43,800 bases of DNA from Escherichia coli (lineage in GTDB: Bacteria > Pseudomonadota > Gammaproteobacteria > Enterobacterales > Enterobacteriaceae): assembly GCF_003334315.1 (NCBI RefSeq), contig NZ_QOWR01000040.1; one strand, written 5' to 3'. The position numbers and the translations under genes were made by a program. Below are positions 10,699-35,655 of the stretch, one piece after another. How positions within the stretch are numbered: the stretch's first letter is position 1; each line of letters opens with the position of its first letter. The notes beneath the pieces were generated by a model. The model was not told the origin of the DNA. It ran no database searches and worked only from the letters and a program-made list of their open reading frames with translations.

Positions 10699-10721
10699 TC
10701 CGTACAACGCTTTCTGGTGAA

Positions 10722-10806
10722 TGGTGCGGGAGGCGAGACTTGAACTCGCACACCTTGCGGCGCCAGAACCTAAATCTGGTGCGTCTACCAATTTCGCCAC
10801 TCCCGC
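10722..10806 (-). tRNA. leuW: tRNA-Leu (anticodon UAG)
   Basis: Reverse complement is GCGGGAGTGGCGAAATTGGTAGACGCACCAGATTTAGGTTCTGG... with long variable arm; 85 nt. Confidence 0.95.
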
Positions 10807-10815
10807 AAAAAAAGA

Positions 10816-10892
10816 TGGTGGCTACGACGGGATTCGAACCTGTGACCCCATCATTATGAGTGATGTGCTCTAACCAACTGAGCTACGTAGCC
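10816..10892 (-). tRNA. metT: tRNA-Met elongator (anticodon CAU), first gene of the operon
   Basis: Identical to the tRNA-Met at 10532-10608. Confidence 0.95.
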
Positions 10893-11271: not shown

Positions 11272-12936
11272 TTACTTATACGCCGACTGGTGAACACCAA
11301 CCGCGCGACCAGACGGATCGTCCATTTTCTTGAACGCTTCATCCCATTCGATCGCTTTAGCGGAAGAACAAGCGACGGAAGGACCGCCCGGCACGCACTC
11401 AGCGGCGCTCGGAAGCGGGAATAGTTCTTCAAAGATCTCCCGATACAAGTACGCTTCTTTAGAGGTTGGCGTGTTGTACGGGAAGCGGAAGCGGGCAGTT
11501 TCCAGTTGCTGATCAGAAACCTGCTGCGCAGCCACTTCTTTCAGGGTGTCGATCCAACTGTAACCGACGCCATCGGAGAACTGCTCTTTCTGCCGCCAGG
11601 CCACGCTTGCAGGCAGATACGCTTCAAAACATTCACGCAGGATGTGTTTTTCCATTTTGCCGTTACCGCACATTTTATCCTGTGGGTTAATACGCATCGC
11701 CACATCAAGGAATTTTTTGTCGAGGAACGGAACGCGTGCTTCCACGCCCCAGGCTGACATCGCTTTGTTGGCACGCGCGCAGTCATACATATGCAGGGCC
11801 AGCAGTTTACGCACCGTCTCTTCATGCAGTTCTTTGGCATTCGGTGCTTTGTGGAAGTAAAGATAACCGCCGAACACTTCATCAGAACCTTCACCGGACA
11901 GCACCATTTTAATGCCCATCGCCTTGATCTTACGCGACATTAAATACATCGGTGTTGAAGCGCGAATAGTGGTCACATCATAAGTTTCGATGTGGTAAAT
12001 CACGTCGCGGATGGCATCCAGACCTTCCTGTACAGTGAAGTGAATTTCGTGATGCACCGTGCCCAGATGGTTTGCCACTTCCTGGGCTGCTTTCAGATCC
12101 GGTGAACCCGGCAGACCTACAGCAAAGGAGTGTAACTGCGGCCACCAGGCTTCAGAGCGTTCCTGATCTTCCACGCGACGGGCTGCGTATTTCTTGGTGA
12201 TAGCGGAAATAATTGAGGAATCCAGACCACCAGAAAGCAGCACACCGTAAGGCACATCAGACATCAGATGGCTTTTAACTGAATCTTCCAGTGCCTGACG
12301 CAGCTCGTTTTTGTCGGTCACGTTATCTTTCACCGCATCGTAGTCGAACCAGTCGCGATGATAGTAAGAACGGATTTCGCCGTCCTGGCTCCACAAATAG
12401 CTCCCCGCCGGGAACTCTTTAATCGTGCGGCAAACTGGCACCAGCGCTTTCATTTCTGAGGCCACATACAGCTGACCGTGTTCGTCATACCCCATATACA
12501 GTGGGATGATCCCCAGATGGTCGCGACCAATCAGGTAGGCATCTTTTTCGCTGTCGTACAGTGCAAAGGCAAACATGCCCTGCAAGTCGTCGAGAAATTC
12601 CGGCCCTTTTTCCTGATACAGCGCGAGGATCACTTCACAGTCAGACCCGGTCTGGAACTGGTAACGATCGCCATATTCGGCGCGCAATGCCTGGTGGTTG
12701 TAGATTTCACCGTTTACCGCCAGTACGTGGGTTTTTTGTTGGTTGTAGAGAGGTTGCGCCCCCGCGTTAACGTCAACAATTGACAGACGTTCGTGGGCGA
12801 GAATGGCGTTATCGCTGGCATAAATACCGGACCAGTCCGGGCCACGATGACGCATCAGGCGTGACAGCTCGAGGGCTTTCTTACGCAGCTCAACTGCGTC
12901 TGTTTTGATATCGAATACGCCAAAAATTGAACACAT
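11272..12936 (-). CDS. asnB: Asparagine synthetase B, glutamine-hydrolysing (554 aa; six-frame ORF extends to 13017)
   Basis: N-terminus MCSIFGV with catalytic Cys2 of class-II amidotransferases; full length. Confidence 0.9.
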   Translation of the reverse strand: MCSIFGVFDIKTDAVELRKKALELSRLMRHRGPDWSGIYASDNAILAHERLSIVDVNAGAQPLYNQQKTHVLAVNGEIYNHQALRAEYGDRYQFQTGSDCEVILALYQEKGPEFLDDLQGMFAFALYDSEKDAYLIGRDHLGIIPLYMGYDEHGQLYVASEMKALVPVCRTIKEFPAGSYLWSQDGEIRSYYHRDWFDYDAVKDNVTDKNELRQALEDSVKSHLMSDVPYGVLLSGGLDSSIISAITKKYAARRVEDQERSEAWWPQLHSFAVGLPGSPDLKAAQEVANHLGTVHHEIHFTVQEGLDAIRDVIYHIETYDVTTIRASTPMYLMSRKIKAMGIKMVLSGEGSDEVFGGYLYFHKAPNAKELHEETVRKLLALHMYDCARANKAMSAWGVEARVPFLDKKFLDVAMRINPQDKMCGNGKMEKHILRECFEAYLPASVAWRQKEQFSDGVGYSWIDTLKEVAAQQVSDQQLETARFRFPYNTPTSKEAYLYREIFEELFPLPSAAECVPGGPSVACSSAKAIEWDEAFKKMDDPSGRAVGVHQSAYK

Positions 12937-13183
12937 AACCTTCTCCGTTAACCTGGTATTTGTTGCTTGTTGTGTTTGCTTGTTTAAAAAAATGCCGCAA
13001 AGCAGCACTGTGCGCAAGCGATTTGGCGGTGAAAAAATAAAAAACGTAATGGTGATTGTCGATTGGTGAAAAAAGGTCTGGTGTGAGGATATGTTTATTG
13101 ATGAATCGATAATTTTTAGCGGGTTTTATTGAATGTTTATATTTTACGGGGGCCAAATTGCTGACAAAGTGCGATTTGTTCAT

Positions 13184-13283
13184 GCCGGATGCGGCGTGAA
13201 CGCCTTATCCGGCCTACAAAAGCATGAAAATTCAATATATTGCAGGAGCTGCGTAGGCCTGATAAGCGTAGCGCATCAGGCAG
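13184..13283. repeat. BIME: two inverted REP elements separated by a ~35-bp linker
   Basis: GCCGGATGCGGCGTGAACGCCTTATCCGGCCTAC ... GTAGGCCTGATAAGCGTAGCGCATCAGGCA; same unit as at 21659-21759 and 29081-29190 in inverted orientation. Confidence 0.8.
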
Positions 13284-13332
13284 TTTGGCGTTTGTCATCA
13301 GAGCCAACCACGTCCGCAGACGTGGTTGCTAT

Positions 13333-14085
13333 TCAGATAACGTCGATTTCAGCGACTGACGGGTAAATCCAGCTGGGGCGGAAAGGCATACTGTCGATAT
13401 CGTCGAGCGACGAAACACCAGAAAGCACCAGAATCGTCTCCAGACCTGCCTGGAAGCCGGCCAGAATATCGGTACGCAGGTTATCGCCGACAATCACCGT
13501 TTCTTCCGAATGCGCCTGCATTTTGTTTAATGCTGCGCGGATGATCCACGGGCTGGGCTTACCAACATAGAACGGTTTGCGCCCGGAGATTTTCTCAATC
13601 CCTGCACACAACGCGCCACAAGCGGGATAAAAACCGCGCCCGTGGGTGTCCGGATTGGTGGCGATAAAACGTGCACCGTTAGCGACGAAATAGGCTGCTT
13701 TATGCATCATGTCCCAGTTGTAGGAACGCGTTTCGCCAACAATCACGAAATCAGGGTTCACATCGGTAATAGTGAAACCGGCTTTGTACAGTTCATGAAT
13801 CAGTGCGCCTTCGCCCACCACATACGCTTTCTTGCCTTCCTGGCGACGCAGGAAATCGGCAGTCGCCATCGCAGAGGTATAAAACACGCTGTCAGGTACA
13901 TCGACACCTGCGGTGGCAAAGCGGTTCGCCAGATCTTGCCCAGTCTGCGAAGGATAGTTGGTCAGCAACACCAGCGGCAGGCCTTTATCCATAATCCCGT
14001 GCAAAAATTCCGCTGCACCCGGTACGGCGACGTTATCGTGCATCAGCACGCCGTCGATATCGCAAATTACATTTTTAATGGTCAT
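13333..14085 (-). CDS. umpH: UMP phosphatase UmpH/NagD, HAD superfamily (250 aa)
   Basis: HAD motif DIDGVL near N-terminus; nag operon context. Confidence 0.9.
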   Translation of the reverse strand: MTIKNVICDIDGVLMHDNVAVPGAAEFLHGIMDKGLPLVLLTNYPSQTGQDLANRFATAGVDVPDSVFYTSAMATADFLRRQEGKKAYVVGEGALIHELYKAGFTITDVNPDFVIVGETRSYNWDMMHKAAYFVANGARFIATNPDTHGRGFYPACGALCAGIEKISGRKPFYVGKPSPWIIRAALNKMQAHSEETVIVGDNLRTDILAGFQAGLETILVLSGVSSLDDIDSMPFRPSWIYPSVAEIDVI

Positions 14086-19658: not shown

Positions 19659-19743
19659 TGCCTGATGCGACGCTTGACGCGTCTTATCAGGCCTACAAAA
19701 GCTCAGTCCAGGTTGGATAAGACGCTTAAGCGTCGCATCCAAC
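19659..19743. repeat. REP elements downstream of nagE
   Basis: TGCCTGATGCGACGCTTGACGCGTCTTATCAGGCCTAC and GGATAAGACGCTTAAGCGTCGCATCC palindromes. Confidence 0.75.
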
Positions 19744-19916: not shown

Positions 19917-21581
19917 ATGAGTGAGGCAGAAGCCCGCCCGACTAACTTTATCCGTCAGATCATCGATGAAGATCTGGCCAGTGGTAAGCACACCACAGTA
20001 CACACCCGTTTCCCGCCGGAGCCGAATGGCTATCTGCATATTGGCCATGCGAAATCTATCTGCCTGAACTTCGGGATCGCCCAGGACTATAAAGGCCAGT
20101 GCAACCTGCGTTTCGACGACACTAACCCGGTAAAAGAAGATATCGAGTATGTTGAGTCGATCAAAAACGACGTAGAGTGGTTAGGTTTTCACTGGTCTGG
20201 TAACGTCCGTTACTCCTCCGATTATTTTGATCAGCTCCACGCCTATGCGATCGAACTGATCAATAAAGGCCTGGCGTACGTTGATGAACTGACGCCGGAA
20301 CAGATCCGCGAATACCGCGGCACCCTGACGCAACCGGGTAAAAACAGCCCGTACCGCGACCGCAGCGTTGAAGAGAACCTGGCGCTGTTCGAAAAAATGC
20401 GTGCCGGTGGTTTTGAAGAAGGTAAAGCCTGCCTGCGTGCGAAAATCGACATGGCTTCACCGTTTATCGTGATGCGCGATCCGGTGCTGTACCGTATTAA
20501 ATTTGCTGAACACCACCAGACTGGCAACAAGTGGTGCATCTACCCGATGTACGACTTCACCCACTGCATCAGCGATGCCCTGGAAGGTATTACGCACTCT
20601 CTGTGTACGCTTGAGTTCCAGGACAACCGTCGTCTGTACGACTGGGTACTGGACAACATCACGATTCCTGTTCACCCGCGCCAGTATGAGTTCTCGCGCC
20701 TGAATCTGGAATACACCGTGATGTCCAAGCGTAAGTTGAACCTGCTGGTGACCGACAAGCACGTTGAAGGCTGGGATGACCCGCGTATGCCGACCATTTC
20801 CGGTCTGCGTCGTCGTGGTTACACTGCGGCTTCTATTCGTGAGTTCTGCAAACGCATCGGCGTGACCAAGCAGGACAACACCATTGAGATGGCGTCGCTG
20901 GAATCCTGCATCCGTGAAGATCTCAACGAAAATGCGCCGCGCGCAATGGCGGTTATCGATCCGGTGAAACTGGTTATCGAAAACTATCAGGGCGAAGGCG
21001 AAATGGTTACCATGCCGAACCATCCGAACAAACCGGAAATGGGCAGCCGTCAGGTGCCGTTTAGCGGTGAGATTTGGATTGATCGCGCCGATTTCCGCGA
21101 AGAAGCTAACAAGCAGTACAAACGTCTGGTGCTGGGTAAAGAAGTGCGTCTGCGTAATGCTTATGTGATTAAGGCAGAACGCGTCGAGAAAGATGCCGAA
21201 GGTAATATCACCACCATCTTCTGTACTTATGACGCCGATACCTTAAGCAAAGATCCGGCAGATGGTCGTAAAGTCAAAGGTGTTATTCACTGGGTGAGCG
21301 CGGCACATGCGCTGCCGGTTGAAATCCGTTTGTATGACCGTCTGTTCAGCGTGCCTAACCCAGGTGCTGCGGATGATTTCCTGTCGGTGATTAACCCGGA
21401 ATCGCTGGTGATCAAACAGGGCTTTGCTGAACCGTCGCTGAAAGATGCGGTTGCGGGTAAAGCATTCCAGTTTGAGCGTGAAGGTTACTTCTGCCTCGAT
21501 AGCCGCCATTCTACGGCGGAAAAACCGGTATTTAACCGCACCGTTGGGCTGCGTGATACCTGGGCGAAAGTAGGCGAGTAA
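19917..21581 (+). CDS. glnS: Glutaminyl-tRNA synthetase GlnS (554 aa)
   Basis: Class-I motifs HIGHAKS and VMSKR; full length. Confidence 0.95.
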
Positions 21582-21597: not shown

Positions 21598-21759
21598 GCC
21601 GGATGGGGCGTTTACGTCGCATCCGGCAAGGAACAGACAAACAGTTTCAAACGCTAAATTGCCTGATGCGCTACGCTTATCAGGCCTACATGATCTCTGC
21701 AATATATTGAGTTTGCGTGCTTTTGTAGGCCGGATAAGGCGTTCACGCCGCATCCGGCA
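21598..21759. repeat. REP/BIME cluster downstream of glnS
   Basis: Three REP palindromes; the distal pair (21659-21759) forms the same BIME unit seen at 13184-13283 and 29081-29190. Confidence 0.8.
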
Positions 21760-21778
21760 AGAAATATGCAAACAATCC

Positions 21779-21806
21779 AAAACGCCGCGCTCTGCGGCGT
21801 TTTTTC
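21779..21806 (+). terminator. Intrinsic terminator after glnS and the BIME cluster
   Basis: CGCCGC-gctct-GCGGCG hairpin followed by TTTTTT. Confidence 0.7.
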
Positions 21807-22032
21807 TGCTTTTCTTCGCGAATTAATTCCGCTTCGCAATTTATCCATAAAATAAATTTAAAATCACAAAACATAATTAAATAAAATGTAACCGCTTTCA
21901 TCTTGCTGGAAATTCACGCTTTTATTCTTCTGCAAGCCTTTCAACCGCAAACTTAAGCCTTGTAACAAAAATCATCAAAATATGTGCGGTTGCTCATGTT
22001 CTTACATTCTGGTTACAGAAAGAGATTGATAA

Positions 22033-27384: not shown

Positions 27385-29025
27385 ATGGCAATCCACAATC
27401 GTGCAGGCCAACCTGCACAACAGAGTGATTTGATTAACGTCGCCCAACTGGCGGCGCAATATTATGTACTGAAACCAGAAGCAGGGAATGCGGAGCACGC
27501 GGTGAAATTCGGTACTTCCGGTCACCGTGGCAGTGCAGCGCGCCACAGCTTTAACGAGCCGCACATTCTGGCGATCGCTCAGGCAATTGCTGAAGAACGT
27601 GCGAAAAACGGCATCACTGGCCCTTGCTATGTGGGTAAAGATACTCACGCCCTGTCCGAGCCTGCGTTCATTTCCGTACTGGAAGTGCTGGCAGCGAACG
27701 GCGTTGATGTCATTGTGCAGGAAAACAATGGCTTCACTCCAACGCCTGCCGTTTCCAATGCCATCCTGGTTCACAATAAAAAAGGTGGCCCGCTGGCAGA
27801 CGGTATCGTGATTACACCGTCCCATAACCCGCCGGAAGATGGTGGTATCAAGTACAATCCGCCAAATGGTGGCCCGGCTGATACCAACGTCACCAAAGTG
27901 GTGGAAGACAGGGCCAACGCACTGCTGGCCGATGGCCTGAAAGGCGTGAAGCGTATCTCCCTCGACGAAGCGATGGCATCCGGTCATGTGAAAGAGCAGG
28001 ATCTGGTGCAGCCGTTCGTGGAAGGGCTGGCCGATATCGTTGATATGGCGGCGATTCAGAAAGCGGGCCTGACGCTTGGCGTTGATCCGCTGGGCGGTTC
28101 CGGTATCGAATACTGGAAGCGTATTGGCGAGTATTACAACCTCAACCTGACTATCGTTAACGATCAGGTCGATCAAACCTTCCGCTTTATGCACCTTGAT
28201 AAAGACGGCGCGATCCGTATGGACTGCTCCTCCGAGTGTGCGATGGCGGGCCTGCTGGCACTGCGTGATAAGTTCGATCTGGCGTTTGCTAACGACCCGG
28301 ATTATGACCGTCACGGTATCGTCACTCCGGCAGGTTTGATGAATCCGAACCACTACCTGGCGGTGGCGATCAATTACCTGTTCCAGCATCGTCCGCAGTG
28401 GGGCAAAGATGTTGCCGTTGGTAAAACGCTGGTTTCTTCTGCGATGATCGACCGTGTGGTCAATGACTTGGGTCGTAAGCTGGTAGAAGTCCCGGTAGGT
28501 TTCAAATGGTTTGTTGATGGTCTGTTCGACGGCAGCTTCGGCTTTGGCGGCGAAGAGAGCGCAGGGGCTTCCTTCCTGCGTTTCGACGGCACGCCGTGGT
28601 CCACCGACAAAGACGGCATCATCATGTGTCTGCTGGCGGCGGAAATCACCGCTGTCACCGGTAAGAACCCGCAGGAACACTACAACGAACTGGCAAAACG
28701 CTTTGGTGCGCCGAGCTACAACCGTTTGCAGGCAGCTGCGACTTCCGCACAAAAAGCGGCGCTGTCTAAGCTGTCTCCGGAAATGGTGAGCGCCAGCACC
28801 CTGGCAGGTGACCCGATCACCGCGCGCCTGACTGCTGCTCCGGGCAACGGTGCTTCTATTGGCGGTCTGAAAGTGATGACTGACAACGGCTGGTTCGCCG
28901 CGCGTCCGTCAGGCACGGAAGACGCATATAAGATCTACTGCGAAAGCTTCCTCGGTGAAGAACATCGCAAGCAGATCGAGAAAGAAGCGGTTGAGATTGT
29001 TAGCGAAGTTCTGAAAAACGCGTAA
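27385..29025 (+). CDS. pgm: Phosphoglucomutase Pgm (546 aa; six-frame ORF begins at 27334)
   Basis: Phosphoserine loop GTSGHRG and TPSHNP motif; start MAIHNRAGQ. Confidence 0.95.
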
Positions 29026-29040
29026 ACACATTAAATAAGA

Positions 29041-29070
29041 AAAAGGGCGGTCGGAAGATCGCCCTTTTTT
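29041..29070 (+). terminator. Intrinsic terminator after pgm
   Basis: GGGCGG-tcggaaga-TCGCCC hairpin followed by TTTTTT. Confidence 0.7.
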
Positions 29071-29080
29071 ACGTATGACA

Positions 29081-29190
29081 AACACAGAATTGCCTGATGC
29101 GCTACGCTTATCAGGCCTACGAGGATGGTGCAATATATTGAATTTACGCGATTTTGTAGGCCGGATAAGGCGTTCACGCCGCATCCGGCA
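29081..29190. repeat. BIME (REP pair with conserved linker)
   Basis: TGCCTGATGCGCTACGCTTATCAGGCCTAC-linker-GTAGGCCGGATAAGGCGTTCACGCCGCATCCGGCA. Confidence 0.8.
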
Positions 29191-29239
29191 AAAACAACGA
29201 ACACTTTGTCAACAAACTGAGTAGCTCAAGGAAATCCCA

Positions 29240-30425: not shown

Positions 30426-30548
30426 TGCTACTTGCTCCTTGTGTGCTACGGTGTCATTTATGATGAGGAATTGTATGGAACATTTTTTAAATATTAAGTT
30501 CCTTATATTTGAATAAAAAATGACTTTATCCATACATTGCCACTTTTT

Positions 30549-30683
30549 TCAAAGCATAAACCGATACCCAATACCGGTTTCAGTAATAAAATGGCGAGGC
30601 CGGGCCGGATCCTGTTCCAGTTTTTGTCGCAGATGCCCCATATAATTACGCAAATAGTTGCTGTGTTCGATCGCGTTTAGACC
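30549..30683 (-). pseudogene. ybfI: KdpE-like response-regulator C-terminal fragment (ybfI-like remnant)
   Basis: ~135 bp roughly 90% identical to kdpE 3' end at 34978-35112; in-frame translation ...IEHSNYLRNYMGHLRQKLEQDPARPRHFITETGIGYRFML* versus KdpE ...VEHSHYLRIYMGHLRQKLEQDPARPRHFITETGIGYRFML*; no N-terminal receiver domain. Confidence 0.8.
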
Positions 30684-30732
30684 CTACATCTGCCGGATGC
30701 GGCATAAATAACGAACTATTTGCCAACAAACA

Positions 30733-30764
30733 GAAAGGGCGATCATTCAATCGCCCTTTTTTAC
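30733..30764. terminator. Hairpin terminator downstream of potE
   Basis: AAAGGGCGAT-cattcaa-TCGCCCTTTTTT. Confidence 0.55.
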
Positions 30765-34703: not shown

Positions 34704-34977
34704 TTACCTTTACCTCTTGCTGTGTCAGTTGAAGGTAGAGTTATTCTATCCATGAAATGGCTATAATCTGTGAAGAAGATCAACAAAAAACGATCATACC
34801 CCAGATAATAAATCATTAATTATGAATAGCGCCATATTAGACGCTGTTTTGTTATTTAAATGTTGTAATTTTGTGTTTTATATTTGCGTTAAGAAATTAA
34901 ACCTGCCAAATAATAATATTTGGTGCAGGTTTAATAATAAATTAATCACTATTTAAGCGAATTTATTGAATAAAAAT

Positions 34978-35655
34978 TCAAAGCATAAACCGATAGCCAA
35001 TACCGGTTTCAGTAATGAAATGGCGTGGGCGGGCGGGATCCTGTTCCAGTTTTTGTCGCAGATGTCCCATATAAATACGCAAATAGTGACTGTGTTCGAC
35101 CGCGTTTGGCCCCCACACCTGGTTAAGGAGCTGGCGCTGGGTGAGTACTTTTCCGGCATTGTTGAGCAGCACCGCCAGCAGGCGGAACTCAATTGGTGTG
35201 AGATGCACCTCTTCCTCACCCCGGTGAATCACGCGGGCGGCTAAATCGACGGTAACATCGGAAAATTTCACCAGCGGATCGGGTGCGGTGGTGGCAGAGT
35301 GGCGGCGTAATGCGACGCGCAGACGGGCCTGCAATTCGCCAATGCCAAACGGCTTACTCAGATAATCATCCGCTCCGGCATCCAGCGCGGCGATTTTGTC
35401 GCTCTCTTCGCTGCGTGCGGAAAGCACAATCACCGGCACCGCGCTCCACTGGCGCAGGTCGCGGATAAACTCAATCCCATCACCATCGGGCAGGCCGAGA
35501 TCGAGAATAATCAAATCTGGCTTACGGGTAGCCGCTTCCAGCAAGCCGCGTTGCAGCGTTTCGGCCTCATAGACGCGCATCCCGTCGCCCTCCAGCGCCG
35601 TGCGCAGAAAGCGACGAATAGCCTGTTCATCTTCAACAATCAGAACGTTTGTCAC
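34978..35655 (-). CDS. kdpE: Two-component response regulator KdpE (225 aa)
   Basis: Receiver domain ([18 protein letters not shown]-box) plus OmpR-type winged helix; 4-bp overlap with kdpD stop. Confidence 0.95.
   Translation of the reverse strand: MTNVLIVEDEQAIRRFLRTALEGDGMRVYEAETLQRGLLEAATRKPDLIILDLGLPDGDGIEFIRDLRQWSAVPVIVLSARSEESDKIAALDAGADDYLSKPFGIGELQARLRVALRRHSATTAPDPLVKFSDVTVDLAARVIHRGEEEVHLTPIEFRLLAVLLNNAGKVLTQRQLLNQVWGPNAVEHSHYLRIYMGHLRQKLEQDPARPRHFITETGIGYRFML

Follow-up and report, generated by a model that had tools for sequence, protein, structure and literature searches.

The BIME-1 repeat of Escherichia coli, also called RIP or RIB, is already known and has been catalogued since the early 1990s. 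RIP stands for repetitive IHF-binding palindromic element and RIB for reiterative ihf BIME; the work in question is reportedly that of Gilson 1991, Boccard and Prentki 1993, Oppenheim 1993, and Bachellier 1994 and 1997. BIME-1 consists of a single Y and a single Z1 REP joined by a long and well conserved L linker, which frequently contains an IHF site, and it is found in single copies (PMC3333891). Its size is about 140 bp, its presence or absence varies among isolates and it was reported mostly in strain-specific "loops" (PMC1187871). The sequence between the REPs interacts with IHF (PMC2817692), and the literature describes L linker DNA as both bound and bent by this protein.

Several other repeats come close to this description. 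BIME-2 elements also have a Y REP and an extragenic location at the 3´ side of genes, but they are built of 2-12 tandem repeats with short S linkers, vary in length instead of being present or absent, and do not possess the L linker with its IHF site. REPINs, the elements mobilized by RAYTs (TnpA_REP, Y1 HUH transposases), are likewise inverted REP doublets around a spacer and able to form one long hairpin; they are nonautonomous and spread slowly, too. No RAYT gene is present within the DNA studied here. Correia and ERIC/IRU elements produce short target duplications of fixed length (TA in the case of Correia) and, unlike BIME-1, contain no REP units. Otherwise these MITEs with IHF sites (Correia elements of Neisseria, ERIC/IRU) have much in common with it: a size of approximately 100-150 bp, inverted-repeat ends, a long stem-loop, a central IHF site, and a position at gene 3´ ends, where they can alter mRNA stability (PMC3184786).

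Anatomy and setting of the three units

The window, i.e. the whole analysed stretch of 43,800 nucleotides, is a part of the E. coli chromosome reaching from gltK to kdpA. According to the initial annotation, a near-identical REP-linker-REP unit of about 100 bp recurs in it at three loci. We consider it highly likely that these units are independent copies of BIME-1 (RIP/RIB), a non-coding, palindromic and mobile-looking repeat of Escherichia. The genes and repeats in question are the following; gene positions were taken from the annotation of genome CP53, which is 100% identical (window coordinate equals locus coordinate plus 799), and the copies were delimited by alignment and by their Y motif.

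11272-12936, minus strand: asnB
13158-13298, minus strand: copy A, full-length BIME-1 in the nagD/umpH-asnB spacer, a 141-nt match to copy C (left arm 13298-13282, Y 13281-13253, L 13252-13218, Z1 13217-13183, right arm 13182-13158; 112-nt core 13183-13294)
13305-13328, minus strand: hairpin at the nagD 3´ end, CAACCACGTC, a 4-nt loop and GACGTGGTTG, 6 nt from the left arm of copy A
13333-14085, minus strand: nagD/umpH, with its stop at 13333
19917-21581, plus strand: glnS
21598-21627, plus strand: solitary Z-type REP ("REP1"), 16 nt past the glnS stop codon
21648-21778, plus strand: copy B, a BIME-1 whose arms are truncated, located in the glnS 3´ UTR (remnant of the left arm 21648-21660, Y 21661-21689, L 21690-21724, Z1 21725-21759, shortened right arm 21760-21778; 112-nt core 21648-21759)
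21779-21809, plus strand: glnS intrinsic terminator, a stem of 11 pairs with a T-run behind it, immediately following copy B's right arm (terminator scan and RNA fold)
from 22161, plus strand: chiP
27385-29025, plus strand: pgm
29040-29072, plus strand: pgm terminator hairpin, AAAGGGCG, a 10-nt loop and CGCCCTTT with a T-tract, directly before copy C (sequence and repeat analysis)
29073-29221, plus strand: copy C, a BIME-1 in the pgm-ybfP spacer (left arm, truncated, 29073-29091, Y 29092-29120, L 29121-29155, Z1 29156-29190, right arm 29191-29221; 112-nt core 29079-29190)
from 29240, plus strand: ybfP-like gene

As had been claimed, the units are intergenic and lie just 3´ of nagD/umpH, glnS and pgm. 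Copy A is downstream of nagD/umpH and upstream of asnB, both of them minus-strand genes, and copy B is found after the stop codon of glnS and ahead of the intrinsic terminator of this gene. All three copies point the same way with respect to the upstream gene, the Y REP being gene-proximal. A terminator-type hairpin adjoins each copy; the one of pgm was not called by the terminator scan, whose loop maximum is 8 nt while this hairpin has a loop of 10 nt.

The three-way alignment (copy A reverse-complemented) has a mean column identity of 87%. The Y REP, GCCTGATGCGCTACGCTTATCAGGCCTAC, is the same at 29 of 29 positions in all pairs of copies, and so is the Z REP, GTAGGCCGGATAAGGCGTTCACGCCGCATCCGGCA, at 35 of 35. 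Pairs of copies agree at 24-26 of the 35 positions of the linker and at 98-100 of the 112 positions of the core. Differences in the linker are limited to 8 nt beside the Y REP and 6 nt in its middle; its layout is an invariant TGCAATATATTGA, N-TTT, six variable bases and TTTT. The alignment had been set beforehand as a test of whether the units share anything besides the short REP cores. As the linker is common to them as well, the claim of one repeated unit stands, and the positions given for it were right within a few bases.

Chance recurrence was ruled out by shuffle controls. The 29-nt Y motif (up to 3 mismatches) occurs three times in the window, where 0.00 occurrences are expected, and the 13-nt linker core (up to 1 mismatch) also three times, with 0.09 expected.

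The length of about 100 bp has to be corrected to about 112-141 nt. Copies A and C are alike at 86% over 141 nt (13158-13298 and 29075-29215), and the repeat exceeds the stated length since its conserved flanking arms are part of it. Both arms are present in copy A, copy C has the right one and a truncated left one, and copy B has only remnants. Copies B and C are alike over approximately 116 nt only, because the arms of copy B are truncated.

The anatomy seen here is that of a Y-type REP, a 35-nt L linker with an IHF-consensus site and an inverted Z1-type REP. Two arms of about 25-30 nt, mutually inverted repeats, flank this Y-L-Z1 core. The palindromic units Y (GCCTGATG...CAGGCCTAC) and inverted Z (GTAGGCCGGAT...CATCCGGCA) were found in all three copies, one Y-Z pair per site. 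Site B harbors an extra Z-type REP in addition: REP1, on the upstream side of copy B, repeats the Z REP of this copy in direct orientation and with a period of 131 nt. We tentatively call the second REP of the units Z1, not Z2, on the strength of its association with the L linker (PMC3333891). The loop of this REP is TTCAC, as compared to UUUAC in the REP325-derived naRNA4 model, which gave sub-threshold matches on the REPs. The window copies thus share with BIME-1 the inverted Y and Z REPs, the long conserved L linker with IHF consensus, the size of about 140 bp with flanking motifs, the extragenic 3´ location and the presence or absence among isolates. Nothing essential differs. The particulars are the truncated left arm of copy C and, at copy B, the truncated arms together with the extra Z-type REP 131 nt upstream, for which copy B could be counted as an atypical BIME.

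The window contains other REP-type palindromes of various kinds, none of them with an L linker. They are situated in the nagE-glnS spacer (19660-19692 and 19712-19743, a Y-type and a degenerate unit), beside the tRNA cluster (10291-10322 and 10324-10362, two degenerate units) and at 3239-3276.

Each linker contains a match to the IHF consensus WATCAANNNNTTR at 8 of its 9 specified positions:

13230-13242, plus strand: copy A linker, ATTCAATATATTG
21700-21712, minus strand: copy B linker
29131-29143, minus strand: copy C linker

Read on the strand opposite to the upstream gene, the matching sequence is A(T/C)TCAATATATTG. The L linkers of the three copies are therefore best described as predicted IHF sites, IHF being the documented partner of the BIME-1 type (PMC3333891, PMC2817692). 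A ChIP study of IHF makes no mention of REPs.

The same linker has been modeled under another name. The Rfam family ES036 (CssrF, RF02751) matches the linker and the first REP bases in all three copies, always antisense to the upstream gene, and the units might accordingly be read as sRNA genes transcribed from the linker. Copy A even scores 41.1 bits (13218-13260, plus strand), above the gathering score of 37.6. Copies C (32.6 bits, 29113-29155, minus strand) and B (28.9 bits, 21682-21724, minus strand) remain below it, though, and the model's predicted helix contains non-standard pairs in the window copies. Promoter scans found no promoter within any of the three units. Moreover, what the 43-nt model describes is effectively the L linker, and a score is therefore to be expected from any BIME-1 copy. 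Because model and linker coincide, the match is another name for the same sequence and not independent evidence of an sRNA gene, and we regard the sRNA reading as unlikely.

Still less credit is due to the idea that the units are gyrase-binding BIME-2 elements acting as topological insulators after strongly transcribed genes. Gyrase was named in the initial annotation, and the units do have a Y REP, the type that is cleaved by gyrase more often than Z2 (PMC6379681). BIME-2, however, has Y and Z2 arrayed in tandem and joined by short S linkers, while here each site has one Y-Z pair and a 35-nt L linker. Further, the higher gyrase affinity belongs to BIME-2 (PMC1475751). Gyrase cleavage sites were reported as over-represented in BIME-2, with no figure given for BIME-1, and as negatively correlated with IHF-occupied sites (PMC6379681). 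Of the suggested potential for binding gyrase or IHF, the IHF half is thus favored by the consensus match and the BIME-1 literature, and the gyrase half is not, strong binding and in vivo cleavage being properties of BIME-2. We retain the assignment of all three units to BIME-1.

Occupancy of the sites and distribution of the family

We compared 5,426 complete E. coli genomes, all of which are matched by a 1.8-kb probe (CP53 at 100%). Site A is occupied in 2,279 of them (about 42%), and its empty allele is 140 bp shorter. At site B about 2,550 genomes (~47%) have the long allele and the rest are 131-132 bp shorter; these counts are approximate, as they come from identity bands and an evenly spaced sample, an 80%-coverage threshold being unusable here since short alleles also align through their lone REP. 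At site C, 2,085 genomes (about 38%) have the element. In most of the others the match breaks off at 29070-29072, immediately in front of the element; there, potE comes next after pgm, and one hairpin is present. In JX21CE8 the match extends to 29190, where the Z REP stops, with kdpE coming next, and in SCU-105 ybfP is bracketed by two BIMEs.

The short allele of site B has a single Z-type REP and retains the terminator and the shortened right arm. REP1 and the Z REP of copy B delimit the length polymorphism of 131 bp, and the lone REP of the short alleles is not what simple recombination of the window's long allele would be expected to leave. The change may have been an insertion or a deletion between the two Z-type REPs; among the fetched Escherichia and Pseudocitrobacter loci there were no outgroup glnS-chiP, nagD-asnB or pgm loci.

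The initial annotation had advised to look for rearrangement breakpoints at the units in related genomes, and they are there: all three sites are indel or rearrangement borders among E. coli. The borders of the units are structural breakpoints in the population, in agreement with PMC1187871. Within the K-12 lineage, which has all three copies, occupied alleles were seen in MG1655 at site B, C600 at site A and J53 at site C. The O157:H7 strain C1-057 lacks copy A, the O157-like strain 272 has copy B and lacks copy C, and CFT073 has the short allele of site B. In CFT073, IS200C is inserted immediately after the glnS terminator hairpin.

The wider family was scanned with the exact pattern of the linker plus the start of Z, using one genome per species. 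At least 56 stretches matched, from Escherichia albertii, E. whittamii, two unnamed Escherichia species, two divergent "E. coli", Pseudocitrobacter and four odd contigs. Among the matches listed, the exact linker pattern was present in none from Salmonella, Citrobacter or Klebsiella, and the main E. coli representative was likewise missing there. A consensus of 61 copies from Escherichia and Pseudocitrobacter has Y and Z exactly as in the window, plus two arms (left cTGAGACTGATGACAAACGCAAAATT, right TGAACAAAGCGCACTTTGTCAACAATCTGAG) that are imperfect inverted repeats of each other. These copies were retrieved with a pattern that fixes the linker core, and the consensus is no independent test of conservation of that core. 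When the fetched loci were surveyed for linker variants with less bias, a single additional variant copy turned up.

The identity of copies A, B and C reflects this family consensus, because the consensus of 61 copies carries the very Y and Z of the window. A recent local origin of the three units from one another, through segmental duplication or gene conversion inside the 16-kb stretch, was rejected and deserves practically no credence: their Y and Z REPs are 100% identical, as it would predict, but the same REPs are the consensus across Escherichia and Pseudocitrobacter, flanks and variable linker positions differ between the copies, and occupancy varies by locus and lineage.

Although BIME-1 is described as a single-copy element, Escherichia sp. 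MOD1-EC7003 contains at least five tandem Y-L-Z units with a 115-nt period. At another fetched locus two BIME-1 units lie 169 nt apart, each with its own hairpin. The four odd contigs, filed under Collinsella, Bacteroides, Desulfosporosinus and Methylobacterium, carry the Escherichia repeat. One of them is nearly identical to the pgm-ybfP-potE region of the window, and these contigs therefore look like E. coli contamination of the respective assemblies.

Terminator hairpins and a possible route of spreading

The mechanism by which REPs and BIMEs spread is described as unknown in the literature examined. Observations on the family copies at other loci suggest that terminator hairpins may have been the places where copies A, B and C inserted. 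Among the 61 copies there are many in which the same locus-specific hairpin stands outside both arms, as an A-tract and hairpin on the left and as a hairpin and T-tract on the right. In 24 of 59 copies, 7 of them tandem, the two flanks of one locus were more similar than the 99th percentile of pairs taken from different loci. When orthologues were collapsed into 42 loci, 44 of 84 element ends abutted a hairpin, as compared to 11 of 84 control windows placed 90 nt further out (Fisher p = 7e-8).

Pairs of filled and empty alleles are available at yhaJ-yhaH, yqjG-yqjF and cmoB-torZ. In each of them a lone terminator-like hairpin is seen in the empty allele, and the order in the filled one is hairpin, BIME-1, hairpin, with a difference in size of 171-176 bp. 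The duplicated hairpin is about 21-24 bp long at these loci. Where asymmetric loops allow the orientation of duplicates to be read, most are direct and a few look inverted.

An adjacent second hairpin was found at none of the three copies in the window, and A and B have no flanking duplication. Downstream of copy C there are two features to be considered:

30691-30732, plus strand: remnant resembling the right arm of BIME-1, a likeness judged by eye
30729-30764, plus strand: second pgm-type terminator hairpin, 1,692 bp downstream of the first, 78% identical to it in direct and 86% in inverted orientation

The segment between the two pgm hairpins comprises copy C, ybfP, a DUF2625 gene and a 3´ fragment of kdpE. 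This 1.69-kb segment is missing from strains in which pgm is directly followed by potE, and those have a single hairpin. The simple allele, pgm-hairpin-BIME-1-hairpin-potE, was found in none of the sampled rows. In the same region, a 145-nt direct repeat with 90% identity (30548-30692 and 34977-35121) has as its first copy a pseudogene fragment of the kdpE 3´ end beside potE. This fragment was probably left behind as a scar when rearrangements brought speF-potE to its place between pgm and kdpE.

We put forward, as a possibility that we ourselves hold to be rather doubtful, that BIME-1 is a true insertion element which targets intrinsic-terminator hairpins and duplicates the whole hairpin (approximately 21-24 bp, 36 bp at pgm), and that this is a real and general property not described in the 1990s literature. 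MITEs have terminal inverted repeats and a direct target-site duplication. Inverted-repeat arms are present in the BIME-1 family, the two hairpin copies around copy C are 1.69 kb apart, nothing is duplicated beside A and B, and at other loci the whole hairpin is doubled. REPINs would part from BIME-1 at this point: single-strand transposition of the IS200 type makes no target duplication, as opposed to the hairpin duplication of about 21-24 bp at other BIME-1 loci. If the proposal is true, a stagger of palindrome length would not be the product of single-strand transposition of the IS200/RAYT type; it would indicate cutting at the base of an extruded cruciform or a replicative event primed by a hairpin. 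The siting of BIME-1 at 3´ ends of transcription units would be accounted for as well, and so would the return of a working terminator upon excision of the whole element. Hairpin duplications flanking BIME-1 are not mentioned in the literature examined, a scope outside of which the primary papers of 1991-1999 fall. If they were not reported before, the duplicated hairpins represent a concrete and testable constraint on the spreading mechanism.

Folding, transcripts and small ORFs

As single-stranded DNA, the units fold more stably than shuffled controls (z = -3.1 to -4.7). The predicted folds comprise either two REP hairpins or Y paired with Z1 and the linker as a loop. In RNA or single-stranded DNA, each REP would fold by itself, or Y and Z1 would pair into one long hairpin. 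REPs in 3´ UTRs are mRNA stabilizers and partial terminators (10.64898/2026.03.23.713779). A hairpin of Y and Z1 could shield the 3´ end of the upstream mRNA and attenuate read-through.

Such protection or attenuation would be sure to matter only for copy B. This copy lies upstream of the glnS terminator and is therefore part of the mRNA, and the RNA fold of the glnS 3´ UTR reaches -92 kcal/mol (z = -6.1 against shuffled sequences). Copy C is located beyond a complete pgm terminator. At site A, strains without the BIME have the nagD hairpin followed by TCTTATTTTT; alignment of filled and empty alleles reveals that this T-tract is gone in the filled one. With this T-tract of the nagD terminator removed by the insertion of copy A, transcripts of nagD probably continue into the element. 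An RNA-level role at A and C, both past the hairpin of their gene, is uncertain. The strain differences may represent genuine variation in regulation at the nagD, glnS and pgm 3´ ends, the loss of the nagD T-tract being one example.

The initial annotation also held the units responsible for spurious small ORFs, and we agree. ORFs of about 29-97 aa cross each of the three units, on both strands, and one has been annotated in RefSeq (CP53). It is the 52-aa "hypothetical protein" WP_152914850.1 (21743-21901, minus strand), which covers the Z REP and the glnS terminator and is very likely a spurious gene call. The significance of the recurrence as originally posed is small. Its practical use is in annotation, where spurious small ORFs, matches to sRNA models and intergenic indel polymorphism can be traced to the repeat. 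Apart from the repeat, the Rfam scan of the window returned ordinary features: the sroC sRNA (1860-2022, minus strand, 175 bits) and a cluster of Gln, Met and Leu tRNAs (10413-10892, minus strand).
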